UHGV virus genome: UHGV-2170153
Reading direction: 5' to 3' (one strand)
DNA: 22,320 nt
DNA from: a virus
Shown one piece after another: positions 1-14,655 of the stretch. The notes under the pieces are model-generated. The model did no database searches. It saw nothing but the letters and a program-made list of their open reading frames with translations, and had not been told where the DNA came from. Position 1 is the stretch's first letter, and the number at the start of each line of letters is the position of its first letter. Both the position numbers and the translations under genes were made by a program.

Positions 1-1284
1 TTACTTCTTCGCCTCTGCAACCACTTTACTACCCACGCCGCGGTTATTGTATTCCCACATGCGGTTGTAGTTAGTGTCATTCAGATTGCGCTGTATTTCG
101 TCGTTATCATCTACGCTGCCGGTATTACCCGCAAACGGACGATTAGAGATCACCGCATCGGCCCACGGTTTAGCCGTGTTAAAACCTTCGTTGATGGCGC
201 TATCACGGATCACCACCTGACCGTTGGTATTGGCATCAACATCCAGCGAGCGGCCCAGTTGCGCCACACCATCACCGAAAGCATTGAAACGGCTGTTTAC
301 GGCGAGGAAACCGTAGTAAATGTTGGACAGCGTAGCCGGTGCAAACACATACGCTTCTTGCTGAGTACGTGAGTTCACCACGCGGAATTCGGTGTTATCG
401 AACACCACTGCGCCGCGACCAGAAACGATATCCACATCCCCTTCAATGTAGCTGTTGGTCACCAGCGTACGCGGCTGACGGTTGGTTTCCAGACGGTTCT
501 GCACACCGCTGTTGGTGACAAAGAAGGTGTTCTGACGACCGAGAATGTTAACGTTGTTAATCTGTACCTGGTCACCATCAGTACGCAGTGCCACCGCCGG
601 ATGGTTACCTGCATCTACGCTATCGCCCAGCGTGTTTTCGATGGTCAGATTTTGCAGTTGCAGGCCATTGTTTTGTGACCAGAAGACCGCAGAGCAGAGA
701 ACACCGATACTGTCGCTGCGTTTGCTCTGGCAGCTATCGTACATATACCACGCTGGTTTACCTGGCATATATTTGCCGCGCGGGTTGACGTCGTGACGCC
801 AGTCGGCAGGGCTCATGCCACCATCAAGGGAAAGCCCAATCTTCACATCAATCGGTTTTTCACCTGTACCGTACAGAGTAATTCCACCCGGAGCGGCAGG
901 GACATATACCGTTCCCTGATACTCACCAGGCATCACGGCAATATACTGGCGCTTGTTGGTACGCTTGATAATTGCCGCATCTACCGCCGCCTGAATCGTG
1001 GTATGCGTTACACCTTGAGTGCCCGCCGGGCCGACAACAAAGTCAGGTTGCGCAGGCAGGGTAATCGGGGAAGGATTCCACGCTGCAGCACCTGGTGTCA
1101 GGGATGCAAAATAGTGTTGAGCATCGAAATTCTGCGCTTCTTTTGCCGACAGAATCGGGCGAGAAGAGGTACCAGGCGCGGTTTGATCAGAAGGACGTTG
1201 ATCGGGCGGGGTTGAGCTACAGGCGGTCAGCGTCACGCCAAAAGCCAATGCCAGCGCCAGACGGGAAACTGAAAATGTGTTCAC
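1..1284 (-). CDS. ybhC: YbhC-family outer-membrane lipoprotein (pectinesterase-like), host chromosomal gene flanking the prophage
   Basis: 427-aa ORF; GTG start at 1284 with GGAG 7 nt upstream; lipoprotein signal MNTFSVSRLALALAFGVTLTAC (lipobox LTAC); recognised from memory as the E. coli gene next to attB-lambda. Confidence 0.85.
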   Translation of the reverse strand: MNTFSVSRLALALAFGVTLTACSSTPPDQRPSDQTAPGTSSRPILSAKEAQNFDAQHYFASLTPGAAAWNPSPITLPAQPDFVVGPAGTQGVTHTTIQAAVDAAIIKRTNKRQYIAVMPGEYQGTVYVPAAPGGITLYGTGEKPIDVKIGLSLDGGMSPADWRHDVNPRGKYMPGKPAWYMYDSCQSKRSDSIGVLCSAVFWSQNNGLQLQNLTIENTLGDSVDAGNHPAVALRTDGDQVQINNVNILGRQNTFFVTNSGVQNRLETNRQPRTLVTNSYIEGDVDIVSGRGAVVFDNTEFRVVNSRTQQEAYVFAPATLSNIYYGFLAVNSRFNAFGDGVAQLGRSLDVDANTNGQVVIRDSAINEGFNTAKPWADAVISNRPFAGNTGSVDDNDEIQRNLNDTNYNRMWEYNNRGVGSKVVAEAKK

Positions 1285-1330
1285 AGGTTGCTCCGGGCTA
1301 TGAAATAGAAAAATGAATCCGTTGAAGCCT

Positions 1331-8832: not shown

Positions 8833-9801
8833 TTAGTAGGTTATTTTTGTTGCGAATACTTCGCCTTTTACGATGGCTGTTATGATATTTTTAGCAACAT
8901 CTTCTGATGCGCCAACCTTGATAATGTCAGCAAGTATTTTGTTATTTACTTCTTTCCGGTGAGCTTTATCCTTTGCTCTACGCTCTTCTTCGTCCTTGAT
9001 TCTTTTTTCTTCTGCTATTCTGGCTTGCTCTTTTGCTTCAGCCTCGCGCCGGATTCGTTCAGCCTCCTCCTGTGCTTTTCGGCGTTCTGCTTCAATTGCC
9101 GCCTGCTTTTCTCTTTCAGCTCGTTCTGCTGCCTCTTTTGCTTCGCGCTGTGCTCGTTGCTCGGCTTCAATGCGTTCACGCTCTGCACGTTCCGCTGCGG
9201 CCTTAGCTTCTGCTTCTCGCCTTGCTGCTGCTTCAATTTCGGCTTTTGCCTTTGCTTCGGCTTCTGCTCTGGCTTTCTCTTCAGCTTCTCTTTTTAAGCG
9301 TTCTTCATGCTCTCGCTTTTCCTGCTCCGCTTTGAGTCTTGCCTCTTCTCTTTGGCGGTCAAATTCGCGATCCATCAAAATCGCTATTTCATGGTCAGAC
9401 TCAATTTGCTTTGCGAGAGCTTCAGCTGCTGCCTTAGCTTCTTCTTCGGCTTTAATCCGTGCCTGTTCCTCCTCATAATCAGTAAGAGGCTGGCGCGCCT
9501 TGGCTTTCAGTTCATCAAGGCGATCGCGCACTGTCTTGCGGTTAGCATCAATTAGCTTTGGAATTTCCTTCAGTTCAGCAACAAGGTCTTTGCCAAGACC
9601 ATCGAGATATGTTTTCGTCTGCGCAACTTTATACGCCAGAGAAGCGATCTCCTTTCTGCCCTTTGCCGTTGTGATATCAGGCACAAAGGACATAACTTCA
9701 CGTTCAACCTTTTGGAGAATTTCTTCAATCTGGTCGGCAGACTGAAATACAGTCATCGCATTTGCTTTTTCAATAACAACTAAATCTGTTACTTCACTCA
9801 T
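8833..9801 (-). CDS. Coiled-coil Ala/Glu/Lys/Arg-rich phage protein of unknown function (322 aa)
   Basis: ATG at 9801 with GGAGGA 4 nt upstream (the track's upstream M at 9897 lacks an RBS); long low-complexity central region EAEAKAKAEIEAAARREAEAKAAAERAERERIEAEQRAQREAKE... Confidence 0.75.
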   Translation of the reverse strand: MSEVTDLVVIEKANAMTVFQSADQIEEILQKVEREVMSFVPDITTAKGRKEIASLAYKVAQTKTYLDGLGKDLVAELKEIPKLIDANRKTVRDRLDELKAKARQPLTDYEEEQARIKAEEEAKAAAEALAKQIESDHEIAILMDREFDRQREEARLKAEQEKREHEERLKREAEEKARAEAEAKAKAEIEAAARREAEAKAAAERAERERIEAEQRAQREAKEAAERAEREKQAAIEAERRKAQEEAERIRREAEAKEQARIAEEKRIKDEEERRAKDKAHRKEVNNKILADIIKVGASEDVAKNIITAIVKGEVFATKITY

Positions 9802-10092
9802 ATATCCTCCATCAAAAAAAATCGCCCTCACACTGGAGGGAAAAGAAGATTTCCAATAATCAGAACAAGTCGGCTCCTGTTTAGTTACGAGCGACATTGC
9901 TCACATAGCAGACTCGTAAATCTGCTATAGGCGCTTATTCGCATCGCATGACAACATCAAATTTTTCGAGATTACTTTGTCGCAACAATCCTTTTTCTAC
10001 GCGGTCAGCTTTTCTATAATTATCAAATTAGAAATGTTTAATTACTTCTTTCGTTTCTCGCTCTATAACTTCAACAATGTATTTCTTATTCA

Positions 10093-10371
10093 TCATTCTT
10101 CCCCCAGAGCCTTGCTGATGGCTGCCTTGGCTCGTTTGTATTCGGTTAACTCTCTGCACCCTTCGTCATGCTCGTAAATGAAGACAAGCTCTTGCAGTGC
10201 TTCAAGCAAATCAGGAGCTGCTGCTATCAGTAGCGCATCCTCCCTTTCATTTCTTGTTGCTGCTTCAATGTATGTGTCACCAATCGTCACACCATGGAAC
10301 GTAGTCATCATCTCGTTGACGTTTCTAACCGTGTACTTCCATTTACCAGGCGTACCCTTAAACTCTTTCAT
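10093..10371 (-). CDS. Hypothetical early-left protein (92 aa)
   Basis: ATG at 10371 with GAGG 5 nt upstream (track begins at in-frame GTG 10377); MKEFKGTPGKWKYTVRNVNEMMTTFHGVTIGDTYIEAATRNEREDALLIAAAPDLLEALQELVFIYEHDEGCRELTEYKRAKAAISKALGEE. Confidence 0.65.
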   Translation of the reverse strand: MKEFKGTPGKWKYTVRNVNEMMTTFHGVTIGDTYIEAATRNEREDALLIAAAPDLLEALQELVFIYEHDEGCRELTEYKRAKAAISKALGEE

Positions 10372-10393
10372 ATCCACCTCTGTTGTTTATGCC

Positions 10394-10419
10394 AAAAATA
10401 AAGGCCGACTATGCGGCCT
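10394..10419 (-). terminator. Candidate intrinsic terminator (tL1-like) on the pL transcript
   Basis: Minus-strand hairpin AGGCCG-catagt-CGGCCT followed by TTATTTTTGG; lies between the membrane-protein ORF and the 92-aa gene. Confidence 0.5.
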
Positions 10420-10423
10420 GAAA

Positions 10424-10735
10424 TTACTTAACCAATGATGCCGCATATTCAATTAGGAATAACTTAGGTGCAAGCCAAATCTTCAACCATTCGAAATTGA
10501 AGGCAATAATTAAAACACCCATAATTGAGCCAAATATAGGAACAAATACAGTGCATATATCGTAATAAACCGAAGATATAAAATGTTCATCATTTGGACG
10601 TCCATCGAAAGACGTCCATCTCTCGCCATTATTTCTTGCCGTTCTTGCAAAACTAGGAAGTTTAATTGCTGCAATTAAAAGCAACAATCCAGCCACTTGG
10701 AAAAGTGCGCTATGGACAAAACTCCATATTAGCAA
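10424..10735 (-). CDS. Putative membrane protein, possibly SieB-like superinfection exclusion; start uncertain (TTG) or gene disrupted
   Basis: Two hydrophobic segments (VHSALFQVAGLLLLIAAI, VFVPIFGSIMGVLIIAF); open frame extends upstream to 10849 with no ATG/GTG; position directly after N matches sieB in lambda/P22. Confidence 0.45.
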   Translation of the reverse strand: MLIWSFVHSALFQVAGLLLLIAAIKLPSFARTARNNGERWTSFDGRPNDEHFISSVYYDICTVFVPIFGSIMGVLIIAFNFEWLKIWLAPKLFLIEYAASLVK

Positions 10736-10854
10736 CTGATGAACAACATCAGGAATCTGTGCCTGGCTAAATGAAACAGCCGCGTCTATTCCATTGCTGG
10801 CTTTTTGCAGTAGTTCTACGAGAATCTTGTTTGCTTGTTCTTCTACATCTCACC

Positions 10855-11190
10855 TCAAATAAGTGGTTTGCTGCCTAATTTCATTTTTTGGCGACCAACA
10901 CAAGTCACCCCCATTTCACTGCGTGGCTTGCGGTAGTAAATACGGTTCTGTTTACGCTCGACTTCTTCTGCCTTCTTGCAGCGAAGGCTTCCGAGTGATG
11001 CTGCTTTTTCAGAAAGGCTTAAACGCTTTCTTGGGGCTTCCTGAACAGGTTCCTCACTGTCTGTGCCGAAGATCGAATCGATGATGTTGCATATAGCATC
11101 ACGCTCGATAGCCAGCTTTCTGCGCCGCTCATGACGGCGAGTTTTGGCATTTCCTGCAAATGTTGATTTCCCGTACACGATTACCGTCAT
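10855..11190 (-). CDS. N: Antitermination protein N with P22-type arginine-rich motif (111 aa)
   Basis: MTVIVYGKSTFAGNAKTRRHERRRKLAIERD... (ARM GNAKTRRHERRRKLAIER as in P22 gp24); C-terminus ...YYRKPRSEMGVTCVGRQKMKLGSKPLI resembles lambda N; GAGGAAAA RBS; track start at 11274 lacks an RBS. Confidence 0.85.
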   Translation of the reverse strand: MTVIVYGKSTFAGNAKTRRHERRRKLAIERDAICNIIDSIFGTDSEEPVQEAPRKRLSLSEKAASLGSLRCKKAEEVERKQNRIYYRKPRSEMGVTCVGRQKMKLGSKPLI

Positions 11191-11309
11191 GATGTTTTCC
11201 TCATGTGAAATGGCTTTGGTGGTGATGCGCCAGATGCTGATCTTCTGGTTGCTGTCGTTGCAGCTGCAATTCACATCACCGCCAAACCCATCTCGTTTGG
11301 TATCTGTTT

Positions 11310-11343
11310 GCGCTTTGTCAGCGCCCCATCGAAGTTAAAGAGC
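11310..11343 (-). promoter_or_regulatory. nutL: nutL: boxA (11343..11334, GCTCTTTAAC) and P22-type boxB hairpin GCGCTGACAAAGCGC (11324..11310)
   Basis: Minus-strand boxA-like GGCTCTTTAAC, 9-nt spacer, then boxB with GACAA pentaloop; located between pL and N. Confidence 0.8.
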
Positions 11344-11382
11344 CTGCCAATCTGTTCCGTTTGGCGTCCTGCTGATGGCTAA

Positions 11383-11411
11383 ATAGTACGATGTGTACTT
11401 TATTGAGTCAA
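11383..11411 (-). promoter_or_regulatory. pL promoter candidate (-35 TTGACT, 17-bp spacer, -10 TACTAT) embedded in operator-like repeats
   Basis: Minus-strand TTGACT (plus 11406..11411) and TACTAT (plus 11383..11388); upstream of nutL and N. Confidence 0.6.
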
Positions 11412-11474
11412 TACAAAATGTTCTAAATGCGGTTAGTTTTTTATAACACTTTGTATTTTATTGATTTATATTTT

Positions 11475-11506
11475 GGAAAAAGAAAACCCGACGCTAAGGT
11501 CGGGTT
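11475..11506 (-). terminator. Intrinsic terminator downstream of cI
   Basis: Minus-strand hairpin AACCCGAC-cttagc-GTCGGGTT followed by TTCTTTTTCC; separates the cI transcript from pL. Confidence 0.65.
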
Positions 11507-11536
11507 ATTGTTGTGTGTTTTAGAGTGGTGAGGCTG

Positions 11537-12190
11537 TTAACTAAATGTCTCTTCAGGCCACTGGCTGGCGATAACTTTCCCTACTACGGAACAGCTATCA
11601 TTGCATGGGATCATTGGATATTGCGGGTTTAGTGGTTGTAGGAACACCTGACCGCTATCCCTGATCAGTTTCTTGAAGGTAAACTCGTCACCACCAAGTC
11701 TGGCTATGCAGAAATCACCTGGCTCAACAGCCTGCTCAGGGTCAACGAGAATTAACATCCCGTCAGGAAAGCTTGGCTTGGATCCTGTTGGTGCGGTCAT
11801 GGAATTACCTTCAACTTCAAGCCAAAACGCACAATCACTGGCTTTTTTGGTTGTGCTGACCCATCTCTCCGCATCGCCTTTGGTAAAGGTTCTAAGCTCA
11901 GGCGAGAACATCCCGGCCTGAACATGAGAAAAAACAGGGTACTCATATTGTTTTTTAACGGGGGCAGATGAGTATTCGCCAACAGGTGAAAATGTACCGT
12001 CGTGGTTGAATGAGACGTTATCAATACCAAGGTATTTAAACACCACACCAATCTCGTCAAGAGATGGATGACGAGATCCGCGCAACCAGTGACCAATTCC
12101 ACCCTGCGTCATACCAAGCTCTTCAGCTAACTTCTCTTGAGTTATGCCGAGCTCTTTCATTCTGGATCTAGCCAGTTCATACCATTTCAT
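11537..12190 (-). CDS. cI: CI repressor, chimeric: heterologous HTH N-terminal domain fused to lambda-type C-terminal dimerisation/autocleavage domain (218 aa)
   Basis: C-terminal ~120 aa nearly identical to lambda cI ([37 protein letters not shown]...[11 protein letters not shown]); N-terminal [36 protein letters not shown] is a different HTH; start chosen at 12190 (AAGGG 7 nt upstream; 12196 also possible). Confidence 0.9.
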
Positions 12191-12252
12191 TTTCATACCC
12201 TTATTATTACGCTCTGTACTAAAACCATCCATGCACAAGATGTATTTTTTGT

Positions 12253-12281
12253 TTGCATTCCAAAAGTACATATCGTATTAT
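12253..12281 (+). promoter_or_regulatory. pR promoter candidate (-35 TTGCAT, 17-bp spacer, -10 TATTAT) with overlapping operator-like repeats
   Basis: TTGCAT 12253..12258 and TATTAT 12276..12281, ~20 nt upstream of the cro RBS. Confidence 0.6.
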
Positions 12282-12307
12282 TGTTTCATGGTTACTATGG
12301 AGGGCAT

Positions 12308-12523
12308 ATGAGCAACCTACGAAAATATCGAGAGTCACTGAATATCTCTCAAACAACACTTGCTAAGGCGGTTGGATGCACACAGGGAGCTATCGGACAT
12401 TGGGAATCTGGTCGTCGCTTCCCAGACCTTAAAACATGCCGTGCTCTTGTTGCGTGCCTAAACAAGTTAGGCGCAAAAGTCAGTCTTGATGACGTGTTCC
12501 CACCGGAACACAAAGCCGCTTAA
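12308..12523 (+). CDS. cro: Cro-like HTH repressor (71 aa)
   Basis: ATG at 12308 with GGAGGG RBS; MSNLRKYRESLNISQTTLAKAVGCTQGAIGHWESGRRFP... HTH; divergent from cI. Confidence 0.85.
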   Translation: MSNLRKYRESLNISQTTLAKAVGCTQGAIGHWESGRRFPDLKTCRALVACLNKLGAKVSLDDVFPPEHKAA

Positions 12524-12533
12524 TAAGCGGATC

Positions 12534-12568
12534 CGCTCTTTATCAATCTGCACCGCCGACAACGCGGT
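12534..12568 (+). promoter_or_regulatory. nutR: nutR: boxA CGCTCTTTA (12534..12542) and P22-type boxB ACCGCCGACAACGCGGT (12552..12568)
   Basis: Consensus boxA, 9-nt spacer, boxB hairpin with GACAA loop, just downstream of cro. Confidence 0.8.
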
Positions 12569-12580
12569 AACTAATTAATC

Positions 12581-12610
12581 ACTCATCGAAAGATGAGTAT
12601 TAGTGATTAT
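12581..12610 (+). terminator. Possible tR1-region hairpin
   Basis: ACTCATC-gaaa-GATGAGT stem nested within AATCACT...AGTGATT, followed by ATTATTT. Confidence 0.3.
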
Positions 12611-12632
12611 TTACCTATGGAAATAGTAAGAA

Positions 12633-12929
12633 ATGGAACAAACAAGTTACAGCAAACTATCACAGCGCGACGTTGATCGCGCTGAAACAGATTTACTCAT
12701 CAACCTGTCAACGCTTACACAGCGCGGTCTGGCAAAGATGATTGGCTGTCATGAATCGAAGATAAGCAGAACGGACTGGAGATTTATTGCTTCGGTCTTG
12801 TGTGCTTTCGGAATGGCATCAGACATCAGTCCGATTAGCAGGGCTTTTAAGTATGCGCTTGATGGAATCACAAAGAAAAAATCCCCGGTGGCCGCCGGGG
12901 ACTCTAAGCAAATTGATATGCAATTCTGA
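12633..12929 (+). CDS. cII: CII-like transcriptional activator (98 aa)
   Basis: ...KISRTDWRFIASVLCAFG...ITKKKSPVAAGDSKQIDMQF parallels lambda CII (...KKRPAATERSEQIQMEF); position after cro/nutR. Confidence 0.8.
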   Translation: MEQTSYSKLSQRDVDRAETDLLINLSTLTQRGLAKMIGCHESKISRTDWRFIASVLCAFGMASDISPISRAFKYALDGITKKKSPVAAGDSKQIDMQF

Positions 12930-12961
12930 GGGAATTACTGGATCAATCCACAGGAGTCATT

Positions 12962-13807
12962 ATGACAAATACAGCAAAAATACTCAACTTCGGCAGAGGT
13001 AACTTTGCCGAACAGGAGCTAAGAGTGGCTGATATCGATGATGGTTACACCAGATTCGCTAACGAGCTGCTGGAAGCTATCGCAAGTGCCGATTTAACCG
13101 CTCGCCAGTTGAAAGTTATGCTGGCCTACGTCCGGAAAACATATGGATTCAATAAGAAAACAGATCGAATAGCCGATGAGCAAATTGCTCAGTTAACAGG
13201 ACTGTCAAGGCAGAATGTTAACAAGGCTAAAAAAGAACTGATTTCAATGAATTGCCTGTTTATGGATGGAAATAAAATCGGTGTAAACAGGGAGGTATCT
13301 GCGTGGCAATTCAGCAAGTGTCTCCAAGTTAGCAACTTTGTCTCGAAGTTAGAGACAAAAAATGTCTCCAAATTAGAGACACTCAATGTCTCGAAGTTAG
13401 AGACACACAAAAGACATTCTTTAAAGACAAAAGAAAATATTAATAAACCCCCTATATCCCCCAAAAAAATTTCTCAGAAGTTCGACCCGCTAGAAACAGA
13501 GTTGCCTGATTGGTTATCGGCAGAAACATGGTTGTCGTGGGTTACCTATCGCAAGGAGATAGGTAAGTCGATCAAGTCTAAGCAAAGCGTCACTCAGGCT
13601 ATCAACGTTCTAAGCAGAAGTCTGGAGAAGGGATATACACCTGAAGAAATTATAAACCAGAGCATCGCCAGTGGTTGGCAGGGGATTTTTGAACCCAAGA
13701 CTCCAAAGGGGAAATCTCAACCGAGGCCGCAGCAGCGAGCTATGCAGGAAAACTTTGCCGCCAAAGATTACGGGCAAACTGAAATGCCTTCATGGGCGCA
13801 GGAGTGA
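12962..13807 (+). CDS. O: Replication initiator O-like protein (281 aa)
   Basis: MTNTAKILNFGRGNFAEQELRVADIDDGYTRFANELLEA... matches lambda O N-terminus; AGGAG RBS; iterons inside the gene. Confidence 0.9.
   Translation: MTNTAKILNFGRGNFAEQELRVADIDDGYTRFANELLEAIASADLTARQLKVMLAYVRKTYGFNKKTDRIADEQIAQLTGLSRQNVNKAKKELISMNCLFMDGNKIGVNREVSAWQFSKCLQVSNFVSKLETKNVSKLETLNVSKLETHKRHSLKTKENINKPPISPKKISQKFDPLETELPDWLSAETWLSWVTYRKEIGKSIKSKQSVTQAINVLSRSLEKGYTPEEIINQSIASGWQGIFEPKTPKGKSQPRPQQRAMQENFAAKDYGQTEMPSWAQE
13319..13470. repeat. ori: Origin of replication: four ~19-bp iterons (TGTCTC-N7-GAGACA type, e.g. tgtctcgaagttagagaca) followed by an A/T-rich tract
   Basis: Iterons start near 13319, 13339, 13363, 13387; A/T-rich 13406..13470; encode VSKLET repeats within O. 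Confidence 0.8.
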
Positions 13808-13809
13808 AC

Positions 13810-14655
13810 ATGACGCTGGATGAAAAGATCTCCCAACTGGAGAAAAAACTTGCAGAATTGAGTTCTCCGCCAATTGCTATCGAGCATACAGCTGTAGAAA
13901 TTGGCACTGGCATCTGTGAAAAACATGGTGAGTTTGAGCAGCGTAACCGTTACTCGACTGGGCCAATTAAGTTTGCCTCAAGACCTAGCGAATGCCCGGA
14001 ATGCATGAGAGATGAGCTTATTCGGCTACAGGCAGAGAAGATTAAAATCGACGAAGAATCACGTAAGCGCAATGTCGAGTTTCTGTTGAATAATCTTGAT
14101 ATTCCTGAACGATTCAAGGGTTGCACACTACAGAACTACGAGCCAGTCAACGACGATGCAAAGAGAGTGCTCAGGGTGTGTCAGGCATACGCCAGCAAAT
14201 GGCCTGAGAGGTTACAGAAAGGCGGTGGGCTGGTTATGTGCGGAAAGCCTGGTACTGGAAAGAATCATCTTGCACTGGCTATCGCCCGGCACGCAATTAC
14301 GGAACATCAAAGCTCAGCTATTTTCACAACGGCGCTGAAAATTGCCAGAGAATATAAATCAACATGGTCTAAAAACTCCACCCGCACAGAGGATGAAGTG
14401 ATCCGACAGTTCACTAAACCTGACCTGCTAATTATCGATGAGGTTGGTGTGCAGTTTGGAAGCGAGGCGGAAAAGATGATCATGTTCGAAATCATCAACA
14501 CCCGCTACGAGTGCATGAAGCCAACAATCCTGATTAGCAACCAGAGCAAAGATGAACTGTCTGCATTCATTGGTGAGCGTGTTATTGACAGGATGAATGA
14601 TGGCGGCGGGTGCACTCTTGCGTTTACATGGGATAGTTACAGGAGCAGATCGTGA
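13810..14655 (+). CDS. DnaC/IstB-type helicase loader ATPase (281 aa), in place of lambda P
   Basis: Walker A GKPGTGKNHLALAI and Walker B DLLIIDEVG; ATG 13810 with GGAG 6 nt upstream; track start 13792 overlaps O and is rejected. Confidence 0.85.
   Translation: MTLDEKISQLEKKLAELSSPPIAIEHTAVEIGTGICEKHGEFEQRNRYSTGPIKFASRPSECPECMRDELIRLQAEKIKIDEESRKRNVEFLLNNLDIPERFKGCTLQNYEPVNDDAKRVLRVCQAYASKWPERLQKGGGLVMCGKPGTGKNHLALAIARHAITEHQSSAIFTTALKIAREYKSTWSKNSTRTEDEVIRQFTKPDLLIIDEVGVQFGSEAEKMIMFEIINTRYECMKPTILISNQSKDELSAFIGERVIDRMNDGGGCTLAFTWDSYRSRS

Follow-up and report, generated by a model that had tools for sequence, protein, structure and literature searches.

The segment from 10855 to 12568 of the window (the whole 22,320-nucleotide stretch of DNA analysed) is, with high confidence from its sequence, the lysogeny control and early antitermination region (immC) of a lambda-like E. 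coli prophage, and it reads as a classic immunity-cassette swap. The mosaic is real and is textbook lambdoid mosaicism, not specific to the window; its modules were all already known from P22, lambda and Shiga-toxin (Stx) phages, and the region is ordinary. The original description proved accurate in its factual points and its reading holds, with some shifts of emphasis given below. How the region binds its operators, its immunity specificity, the cleavage of cI and antitermination by N are predicted by homology. The whole composite was found unbroken at approximately 98% identity (97.6–98.9%) in prophages of several unrelated E. coli strains (Brazilian, swine, rat, chicken and human in origin), and at least 80% of 10700–12700 was covered in 50 of 5426 complete genomes; partial matches occurred in roughly 2100 E. 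coli genomes. The original prediction held that no single known phage would match the region without breakpoints; this stood for named phages, none of which was found to span it unbroken, and failed for E. coli prophages such as Br_190_kylling. The features of the region are as follows.

10855–11190, minus strand: N gene, 111 aa, a chimera (ORF, Pfam and alignments)
10858–10962, minus strand: C-terminal 35 residues of N, VERKQNRIYYRKPRSEMGVTCVGRQKMKLGSKPLI, a lambda-N-type RNA polymerase-binding domain
11101–11154, minus strand: codons of the arginine-rich motif (ARM), N residues 13–30, GNAKTRRHERRRKLAIER, the boxB-binding part (18/18 identical to P22 gp24)
11310–11343, minus strand: nutL, with boxA GCTCTTTAA (11335–11343) and boxB GCGCTGACAAAGCGC (11310–11324), by P22 identity
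11383–11411, minus strand: pL, with −35 TTGACT, 17-nt spacer and −10 TACTAT (consensus scan)
11384–11458, unstranded: oL1 (11384–11400), oL2 (11409–11425) and oL3 (11442–11458), by matches to AP005153 operators
11476–11506, minus strand: intrinsic terminator of the cI transcript, stem AACCCGAC/GTCGGGTT plus T tract
11537–12196, minus strand: cI repressor, 219 aa from ATG 12196, with an alternative ATG at 12190 (Pfam and alignments)
11945–11956, minus strand: joint in the cI linker, codons KKQ/YEYPVF, non-lambda upstream and lambda-like downstream
12203–12231, strand opposite pR: putative pRM, TGGATG-17-AATAAT
12205–12280, unstranded: oR3 (12205–12221), oR2 (12231–12247) and oR1 (12264–12280), by matches to AP005153 operators
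12253–12281, plus strand: pR, with −35 TTGCAT, 17-nt spacer and −10 TATTAT, overlapped by oR1 (scan)
12308–12523, plus strand: cro, 71 aa, HTH_3 type (Pfam)
12534–12568, plus strand: nutR, with boxA CGCTCTTTA (12534–12542) and boxB ACCGCCGACAACGCGGT (12552–12568), by P22 identity
12574–12604, plus strand: hairpin between nutR and cII, at the tR1 position (−12.8 kcal/mol, z = −3.07)
12633–12929, plus strand: cII, 98 aa, Nil2/SH2026Stx1 type (Pfam Phage_CII, E = 2e-31)
12642–12655, minus strand: putative cII-box-like TTGC-N6-TTGT

The prophage sits at the lambda attachment site, adjoining ybhC; the lambda attP core comes next, at 1331. The ORF at 1–1284 had a PHROG match as a phage gene; this assignment was rejected, the ORF being the host gene ybhC. 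The window covers the left (early) half of the prophage. As predicted, Int, Q and the lysis genes were of lambda type at 97–100% identity (Int, 351/356; Q, 206/207; S, 105/107; R, 154/158). We considered a decaying, cryptic prophage whose switch no longer works, given that the early half alone is visible and that, in the next gene downstream of N, GTA replaces the ATG present in N7 and Br_190. However, N, cI, cro, cII, O, the DnaC-like loader, Q, S and R are intact; the cI protein is 100% identical to that of the isolated phage vB_EcoP-683R2 (683R2) and Cro to that of Nil2 (one residue off 683R2 Cro); and conservation extends to the promoters, the six operators, the two nut sites and the terminators. 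A dead switch is unlikely, and it was rejected given these intact genes and conserved control sites.

cI carries an N-terminal HTH_3 domain (Pfam, E = 8e-11) and a C-terminal Peptidase_S24 domain (E = 9e-29); its cleavage site (Ala94-Gly95) and dyad (Ser132/Lys175) align with the lambda residues, and by this domain content it is predicted to be a self-cleaving repressor of the LexA/lambda-cI (Peptidase S24) kind. The C-terminal 136 residues were nearly those of lambda cI (133/136 identical; 94.1% nucleotide identity over the 405 nt from 11543 to 11947), whereas the N-terminal 83 were not (17/83). Identity to lambda rose from 31–47% to 96% within about 10 nt at the YEYPVF codons (11945–11947), and the blastn match to lambda stopped at 11947. 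The comparison with lambda thus located the recombination joint, which had been predicted in the cI linker, at approximately 11947/11948. The same joint is common to Nil2, 683R2 and many Stx phages. The N-terminal domain, predicted to be heterologous, does differ from lambda but is of a known type: it is identical in 683R2 (81/81), Dewey and Louie, and 78 of 81 residues are shared with Nil2 and other O157 Stx phages, the full protein being ~97% identical to Nil2-type Stx-phage cI. The DNA-binding domain is thus a known immunity type and no orphan. The lambda-like half of cI might instead reflect strong purifying selection on a common ancestor with no recombination joint; S24 C-terminal domains are generally conserved better than HTH domains, and P22 c2 shares 60/132 residues with this C-terminal domain. 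Such an account is highly improbable and was rejected on the abruptness of the nucleotide change and on the conservation of silent sites across the 405 nt, which selection on the protein would not produce; the terminator after cI is lambda-like as well.

This terminator (11485–11506, minus strand; −12.4 kcal/mol, z = −4.5) is followed by TTTCTTTTT. It is homologous to the hairpin just downstream of lambda rexB (88.9% identity to lambda 35799–35834), and its stem shows a compensatory change from A-U to G-C. In agreement with the predicted absence of rex genes, only 30 nt separated the cI stop codon from the terminator stem, rexA and rexB were absent between them, and the 346 bp separating cI from N contained no minus-strand ORF of at least 30 aa. 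In lambda, by contrast, rexA-rexB are inserted between the same two landmarks, cI and the terminator.

The six predicted operators, 17 bp each with the core TAC-N5-GTA, matched those annotated in the Stx1-converting phage AP005153 at 15–16 of 17 bases and lay at homologous positions. Cro is a paralogue of the cI N-terminal domain (BLASTP, 22/62 identical, E = 6e-13), the recognition helices of the Cro/cI pair being TQGAIGHW and TQGGIGHW. The region is not imm-lambda, as it showed no nucleotide-level resemblance to the oR, oL or cro of lambda. The shared cI N-terminal domain, Cro and six operators suggest that it belongs to the Nil2/683R2 immunity group. Nil2-type immunity probably corresponds to the lambda-related CI Clade I described in PMC8951638.

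The pL transcript should start near 11376, within the conserved CATCAGCAGGACGC (11364–11377), a start sequence common to lambda and P22. From the placement of pRM, cI mRNA would be leaderless or near-leaderless, and the hairpin between nutR and cII may act as tR1, judging by its position.

The original prediction paired a P22-type ARM in N with P22-type GACAA boxB hairpins at both nut sites. A mismatch to P22 on alignment would have spoken against this pairing; the alignment showed full identity instead, with the ARM and both boxB sequences identical to P22. The nutL boxB equals P22 boxB-left (15/15) in a block 87–88% identical to P22, and the nutR boxB equals P22 boxB-right (17/17) in a 37-nt block that is 94.6% (35/37) identical. 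The pattern of boxA plus GACAA hairpin occurred exactly twice in the 22.3 kb, at nutL (11310–11343, minus strand) and nutR (12535–12567, plus strand), with 0.00 matches expected from shuffles; at nutR, GACAA lies within a 7-nt loop with unpaired C/C flanks, exactly as in P22. The minimum-energy fold of the 51-nt nutL context did not contain the boxB hairpin, and the nutL and nutR contexts were no more stable than shuffled sequences (z = −0.5 and −0.8). As the folding tests gave no support, the evidence for the nut sites is P22 sequence identity and position rather than thermodynamics. An Rfam scan of 9500–14000 (E ≤ 1) gave two chance-level matches (mir-290 and DicF), with no nut and no oop.

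N has a Shine-Dalgarno sequence, GAGGA, 9 nt 5' of its ATG, and matches Pfam PF25694 (N_peptide; 90.5 bits against a cut-off of 27.9). Residues 1–42 were 40/42 identical to P22 gp24, residues ~43–66 were unlike both P22 and lambda, and the C-terminal 35 residues were 20/35 identical to lambda N. The Pfam match spans only profile positions 1–76 of 100 and the C-terminus aligns with lambda N, so N is a hybrid protein, with a P22-type N-terminus and a lambda-type RNA polymerase-binding C-terminus. Likeness to gp24 stops short of the last 35 residues, and N would be of the P22 class in RNA recognition alone. That is, the P22-type N of the original prediction stood for the first ~42 residues and nutL and did not stand for the last 35 residues, which are lambda-N-like. 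Consistently, 10857–10924 was 98–100% identical in nucleotides to the lambda-type N of 683R2, and a sequence search of full-length N against the PDB found lambda N alone (6GOV, E = 2.2e-6). A PDB search with the ARM peptide gave no match, chains of <20 residues presumably being excluded there; PDB 1A4T is cited in PMC11480772 as the structure of the P22 ARM-boxB complex. No NCBIfam model matched N or cII, and PADLOC found no defence-system match among the ORFs flanking N. PMC3526286 distinguishes three regions through which N makes its interactions. Literature searches, in which Nil2 cI was likewise covered, found no paper on the exact N allele with a P22 ARM and a lambda C-terminus.

That a P22-type N protein can work with a swapped C-terminus has a precedent in phages L and ST64T (PMC8022706): in their gp24, a P22-type N-terminus (96% over 75 aa) is followed by a C-terminus that is unrelated and has been exchanged, and this protein and P22 gp24 can reportedly replace each other in function. 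The C-terminus of ST64T gp24 (KKNRIYYR...QKQRGKSIP) is distantly of the same kind as that of the window N but differs in sequence, and the joint lies further downstream (~residue 75, against ~residue 42/66 in the window N); overall, 64/113 residues are identical.

The likeness to P22 is thus limited to particular parts. Across 11065–11383 the nucleotide identity to P22 was just 72.6%, and the N leader (11216–11285) and N residues 43–76 are not P22-like. P22 gp24 ends in ...LLPGVALYAAGHRKSKQITAR, whereas the C-terminal third of the window N is of lambda type, and the repressor, Cro and cII of the window belong to types unrelated to P22 c2, cro and c1. 'P22-type' N is therefore an allele family rather than a transfer from P22: the hybrid N occurs at 94–95% amino-acid identity in 87 phage records, including the Stx1 phage SH2026Stx1 and many Stx2a phages. 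A recent and unique recombinant of P22 (or a close Salmonella relative) with lambda, formed in the window's own genome, would fit the ARM and both boxB and, on the lambda side, the cI C-terminal domain, int, Q, S and R, but it is the least probable account and was rejected as already contradicted by the many silent differences from P22 across N-nutL, by an existing E. coli allele (SH2026Stx1) matching there at 94.7%, by the unbroken composite in other strains and by a cI joint shared with other phages.

The segment map points instead to known E. coli phages. SH2026Stx1 matched 10854–11383 (94.7%) and 12533–12969 (99.1%), with nothing between, whereas 683R2 matched 11364–12523 (98.0%) and 10847–10935 (97.8%). 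Within the region, lambda matched 11543–11947 and the terminator only, and P22 matched 11065–11383 and nutR only. The SH2026Stx1 group (SH2026Stx1 and about 85 Stx2a/Stx1a records) has the hybrid N (107/113), nutL, pL start and nutR-cII (cII, 99% nucleotide identity to SH2026Stx1) in common with the window, but it differs completely in cI, cro and operators and carries several ORFs between cI and N. 683R2, Dewey and Louie share with the window the oL-terminator-cI-oR-cro stretch, without rexAB, and the last 26 N codons; unlike the window, they have a lambda-type N ARM (MDAQTRRRERRA), lambda-type nutL and nutR with a GAAAA loop, and lambda cII. Lambda itself differs further, in that its Cro has the lambda Cro fold (the window Cro being HTH_3), its operators differ, its cII is 31% identical and its N ARM and boxB are not of the P22 type. 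The Nil2-type O157 Stx phages (Nil2, AJ413274; the Stx1-converting phage AP005153; 2851; 1717; YYZ-2008) show 90% nucleotide identity to the window over cI-cro-cII, with cI at 78/81 plus 132/136, six operators at homologous positions and the same lambda joint; their N (HK97-like) and the boxB cassette between cro and cII differ, and extra ORFs directly follow cI where the window has the terminator. The cI/cro cassette occurs in three phages, each with its own matched N/boxB pair: the lambda motif with GAAAA boxB in 683R2, a third type in Nil2 and the P22 type in the window.

From this map we infer an origin by homologous recombination at short conserved linkers, in which an SH2026Stx1-like N-nutL...nutR-cII frame would have come to carry a 683R2-like oL-cI-oR-cro cassette. 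The left joint would fall within the conserved start of the pL transcript (11364–11383), and the right one past the cro stop codon and ahead of boxA (12523–12533); the joints within cI (~11947) and within N (~11072 and ~10991) would be older. The Br_190_kylling prophage matched 10723–12969 in one piece (97.6%), with N differing at 3/111 residues, and the prophage of E. coli W (ATCC 9637) matched 10991–12969 at 97.3%, its N switching at ~residue 58–66 to a P22/21-type C-terminus (...LPEVALYAAGYRRQKLITAR). Both prophages differ from the window in their replication genes.

By homology, the switch would work as follows. cI dimers would bind the three operators at pL and the three at pR via the HTH_3 N-terminal domain, and the lambda-type C-terminal domain would give dimerisation, cooperativity and RecA-stimulated self-cleavage at Ala94-Gly95 through Ser132 and Lys175; therefore, the prophage should be SOS-inducible. 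cI would be transcribed alone, ending at the strong terminator. Upon induction, Cro and N would be produced, the P22-type ARM of N would bind the GACAA-looped boxB hairpins at both nut sites, and boxA would recruit Nus factors, while the lambda-type C-terminus of N would engage RNA polymerase and so make it resist the terminators downstream of pL and pR.

Two further ideas, taken together, are speculative and rather doubtful. The window and E. coli W have near-identical immunity regions (97–98%) and the same P22 ARM but different N C-termini (lambda-type and P22/21-type, respectively); the polymerase-binding module might be swapped adaptively, e.g., for Nus-factor dependence or for escape from anti-N functions of either the host or a prophage. 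If so, natural N pairs would be a ready-made test set. In addition, this cI and lambda cI could form inactive heterodimers in one cell, because their dimerisation/cooperativity domains are near-identical yet their operators differ; two heteroimmune prophages would then be coupled in their stability or induction.

The correct annotation is a region of the Nil2/683R2 immunity group, predicted to be SOS-inducible, with P22-class N specificity and without rex exclusion genes. Past annotation its significance is small; it illustrates, cleanly and at good resolution, the modular theory of how lambdoid phages evolve. N's RNA-binding motif travels together with both of its RNA targets despite the exchangeable immunity cassette between them, and the points of exchange fall on short conserved sequences (the pL transcript start and boxA) and also, within genes, at domain boundaries (the cI linker and the N C-terminus).

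We assigned each segment of the region to its best-matching known sequence, which gave the following module map:

10854–11383: Stx1 phage SH2026Stx1, 94.7%
11065–11383: P22, 72.6%
11364–12523: Escherichia phage vB_EcoP-683R2 (683R2), 98.0%
11479–11514: terminator, lambda, 88.9%
11543–11947: lambda, 94.1%
12533–12969: SH2026Stx1, 99.1%, an unrelated repressor lying between its two segments
12534–12570: nutR, P22, 94.6%

The map shows the classical pattern of a substituted immunity cassette. Its left joint lay within the 20-bp overlap 11364–11383, i.e., the conserved pL transcript start common to lambda, P22 and the window phage (CATCAGCAGGACGC), and the right joint lay between the cro stop (12523) and nutR boxA (12534). 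A perfect small hairpin (CCGCTT-AAT-AAGCGG, 12516–12530) spans the cro stop codon just before boxA and is conserved in the O157 Stx phage Nil2 (AJ413274) and in the E. coli strain Br_190_kylling (Br_190).

The antitermination elements were located as follows:

10855–11190, minus strand: N, 111 aa, GAGGA 9 nt upstream of ATG
11310–11343, minus strand: nutL, GCTCTTTAACTTCGATGGGGCGCTGACAAAGCGC
12534–12568, plus strand: nutR, CGCTCTTTATCAATCTGCACCGCCGACAACGCGGT

The original prediction had assigned a P22 arginine-rich motif (ARM) to N and P22-type boxB hairpins to both nut sites. Residues 13–30 of N (GNAKTRRHERRRKLAIER) were the same as in P22 gp24, the N homologue of P22, and each boxB sequence equalled its P22 counterpart, which bears out both assignments. 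Identity to P22 reached 40 of 42 for N residues 1–42 and 35 of 37 for the nutR block, and N matched Pfam N_peptide (PF25694) with 90.5 bits. When the window was searched for boxA with a GACAA hairpin, only nutL and nutR matched, where chance would give none. The GACAA loop would take a GNRA-like fold, as in PDB 1A4T, an entry cited in PMC11480772. Following the lambda and P22 paradigms, N would bind boxB with its loop in this fold, boxA would recruit Nus factors, and terminators would be read through.

N itself is a patchwork, a point absent from the original prediction. Its last 35 residues (VERKQNRIYYRKPRSEMGVTCVGRQKMKLGSKPLI) were identical to the lambda N C-terminus at 20 of 35 positions and showed 98–100% nucleotide identity to the lambda-type N of 683R2, whereas the P22 gp24 C-terminus was quite unlike them. 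Sliding identity set apart the stretches of N–nutL: nutL was P22-like (87–88%), the N leader (11216–11285) was unlike P22, the ribosome-binding site and N codons 1–39 were P22-like (77–95%), codons ~40–66 were particular to the window allele, and the gene from ~10992 on resembled the N7 and 683R2 types. Mogridge et al. reportedly found in 1998 that the N-terminus of N binds boxB, the central part NusA and the C-terminus RNA polymerase. A three-region architecture of N is also stated in the literature (PMC3526286). Given this architecture, a protein with a P22-type N-terminus and a lambda-type C-terminus would recognise RNA as P22 does and contact the polymerase in the lambda manner. P22-type N with swapped C-termini has been described for phage L/ST64T and reported functional (PMC8022706), and our sequence check confirmed the swap. 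The same hybrid N was found at full length with ~94% identity in 87 phage records, e.g., SH2026Stx1 and many Stx2a phages. A prophage of E. coli W (ATCC 9637; NC_017664) has the same immunity cassette at 97.3% and the same N residues 1–57, but after residue 57 (window ~10991) its N carries a P22/21-type C-terminus (...LPEVALYAAGYRRQKLITAR). This N combines the same ARM with another naturally occurring C-terminus, the second such variant, and again points to frequent exchange at the N domain boundary.

Directly downstream of N, a gene for a small membrane-like protein (phrog_3054; 10424–10846, minus strand) has lost its start codon (GAGATGTAGAAGAA in the window vs. GAGATATGGAAGAA in phage N7 and the Br_190 prophage). 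The longest ORF left starts at TTG (10735) and encodes 103 aa; the gene product had no match in PADLOC or Pfam.

Six 17-bp sites, each homologous in location to a putative operator annotated in the Stx1-converting phage AP005153, agreed with these operators at 15–16 of 17 positions; they are listed with the repressor gene:

11384–11400: putative operator oL1
11409–11425: putative operator oL2
11442–11458: putative operator oL3
11537–12196, minus strand: cI, lambda-like C-terminal part, non-lambda N-terminal domain
12205–12221: putative operator oR3
12231–12247: putative operator oR2
12264–12280: putative operator oR1

As proposed from the sequence alone, the C-terminal half of cI was lambda-like (133/136 identical over the last 136 residues) and the N-terminal domain differed (17/83 over the first 83). 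Nucleotide identity to lambda rose from 31–47% to 96% at the YEYPVF codons (~11947), where the joint had been placed. The Ala-Gly cleavage site (94–95), Ser132 and Lys175 were all in place. The DNA-binding domain called heterologous is a known immunity type; the 683R2 cI protein was 100% identical to that of the window, Nil2 cI was identical at 78/81 plus 132/136 residues, and Nil2 Cro was identical to window Cro. Stx phages carry a lambda-related CI clade with 61% overall identity to lambda CI (PMC8951638), which may include this allele. The –10 elements of pL (TTGACT-17-TACTAT) and pR (TTGCAT-17-TATTAT) were overlapped by oL1 and oR1, respectively. Cro and the cI N-terminal domain were paralogues with a nearly identical recognition helix, as would be expected of two proteins reading the same operators. 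By analogy with lambda and P22, cI would repress at the six operators, Cro would compete with it, and SOS would trigger cI cleavage. A weak predicted pRM (TGGATG-17-AATAAT) would give a leaderless cI mRNA, and a cII-dependent promoter is predicted from TTGC-N6-TTGT at 12642–12655. In the cII 3' end, where lambda has its oop RNA terminator, lies a strong terminator-like hairpin (12878–12905, minus strand; 11 pairs, then a T run), for which Rfam gave no match.

The same cI/cro cassette was accompanied in each phage by its own matched N motif and boxB, of lambda type in 683R2, a third type in Nil2 and P22 type in the window. These three matched types around one cassette show that the split N–nutL/nutR unit is inherited together, with the exchangeable cassette lying within it. 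Compared with Nil2, which has cro and cII in common with the window, the replaced stretch amounts to only ~70 nt and contains boxB and the tR1-position hairpin (12543–~12612). This micro-cassette (12543–12612) is completely different in Nil2, its flanks (cro on the left, cII on the right) are ~90% Nil2-like, and exchange took place at boxA on one side and at the ribosome-binding region of cII on the other.

The original prediction also held that cI is followed directly by a terminator, with no rex genes. A strong intrinsic terminator with a T tract (11485–11506, –12.4 kcal/mol, z = –4.5) indeed lay 30 nt past the cI stop, an interval too short for rexAB. It was homologous, with a compensatory stem change, to the hairpin that directly follows rexB in lambda (AATAACCCGACCTTAGCGTCGGGTTTTCTTT in the window vs. 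AATAACCCGGCCTCAGCGCCGGGTTTTCTTT in lambda); therefore, rexAB reads as an insertion in lambda between two landmarks that are adjacent in the window and 683R2. The absence of rexAB is the simpler state, is common and is no peculiarity of the window.

Host gene ybhC occupied window 1–1330, and homology to lambda and HK97 started at 1331, corresponding to lambda attP core position 27724. With lambda homology starting at the attP/attB core, 1–1345 carries attL, and the window therefore represents the early half of a lambdoid prophage that occupies the lambda attachment site in an Escherichia chromosome. The ybhC ORF also matched PHROG, which reflects how that library delimits its prophages and was set aside as an artefact. 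Int (351/356), Q (206/207), S (105/107) and R (154/158) were nearly identical to lambda, in line with the lambda type predicted for Int, Q and the lysis genes. Identity to lambda was low for cII (31%) and O (34%), and a DnaC-like loader takes the place of lambda P. The O-like replication gene (12962–13807) contains four 17-bp iterons (GTCTC-N7-GAGAC, 13320–13403), presumably the origin, and is followed by the loader gene (13792–14655). Between cIII/kil and the N-proximal genes, 8833–9897 (minus strand) encodes a 354-aa protein whose coiled-coil segment is long, highly repetitive and rich in Glu/Ala/Lys/Arg; related phages label the protein 'TolA' or 'coiled-coil'. Coverage of the full 22 kb did not exceed 55% in any complete E. 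coli genome or phage record, as is usual among lambdoid prophages.

The expectation that no single known phage spans the region unbroken stood for the phage collection, in which no record reached 80% of 10700–12700, but not for E. coli genomes, 50 of 5426 complete ones covering at least 80%. Several did so in a single unbroken alignment at 98–98.9%, and Br_190 matched 10723–12969 at 97.6%. The composite arrangement is not unique to the window. The factual statements of the original prediction were all confirmed and its reading was correct, and the genes, motifs, sites, identities to characterised homologues and segment boundaries can be regarded as established at the sequence level. The region is a textbook lambdoid mosaic: described phages contain every one of its modules at 94–100% identity, and sequenced E. 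coli prophages repeat the complete arrangement. As nucleotide identity to P22 is low, 'P22-type' must refer to an old family of alleles that resides in E. coli phages and not to a recent import.
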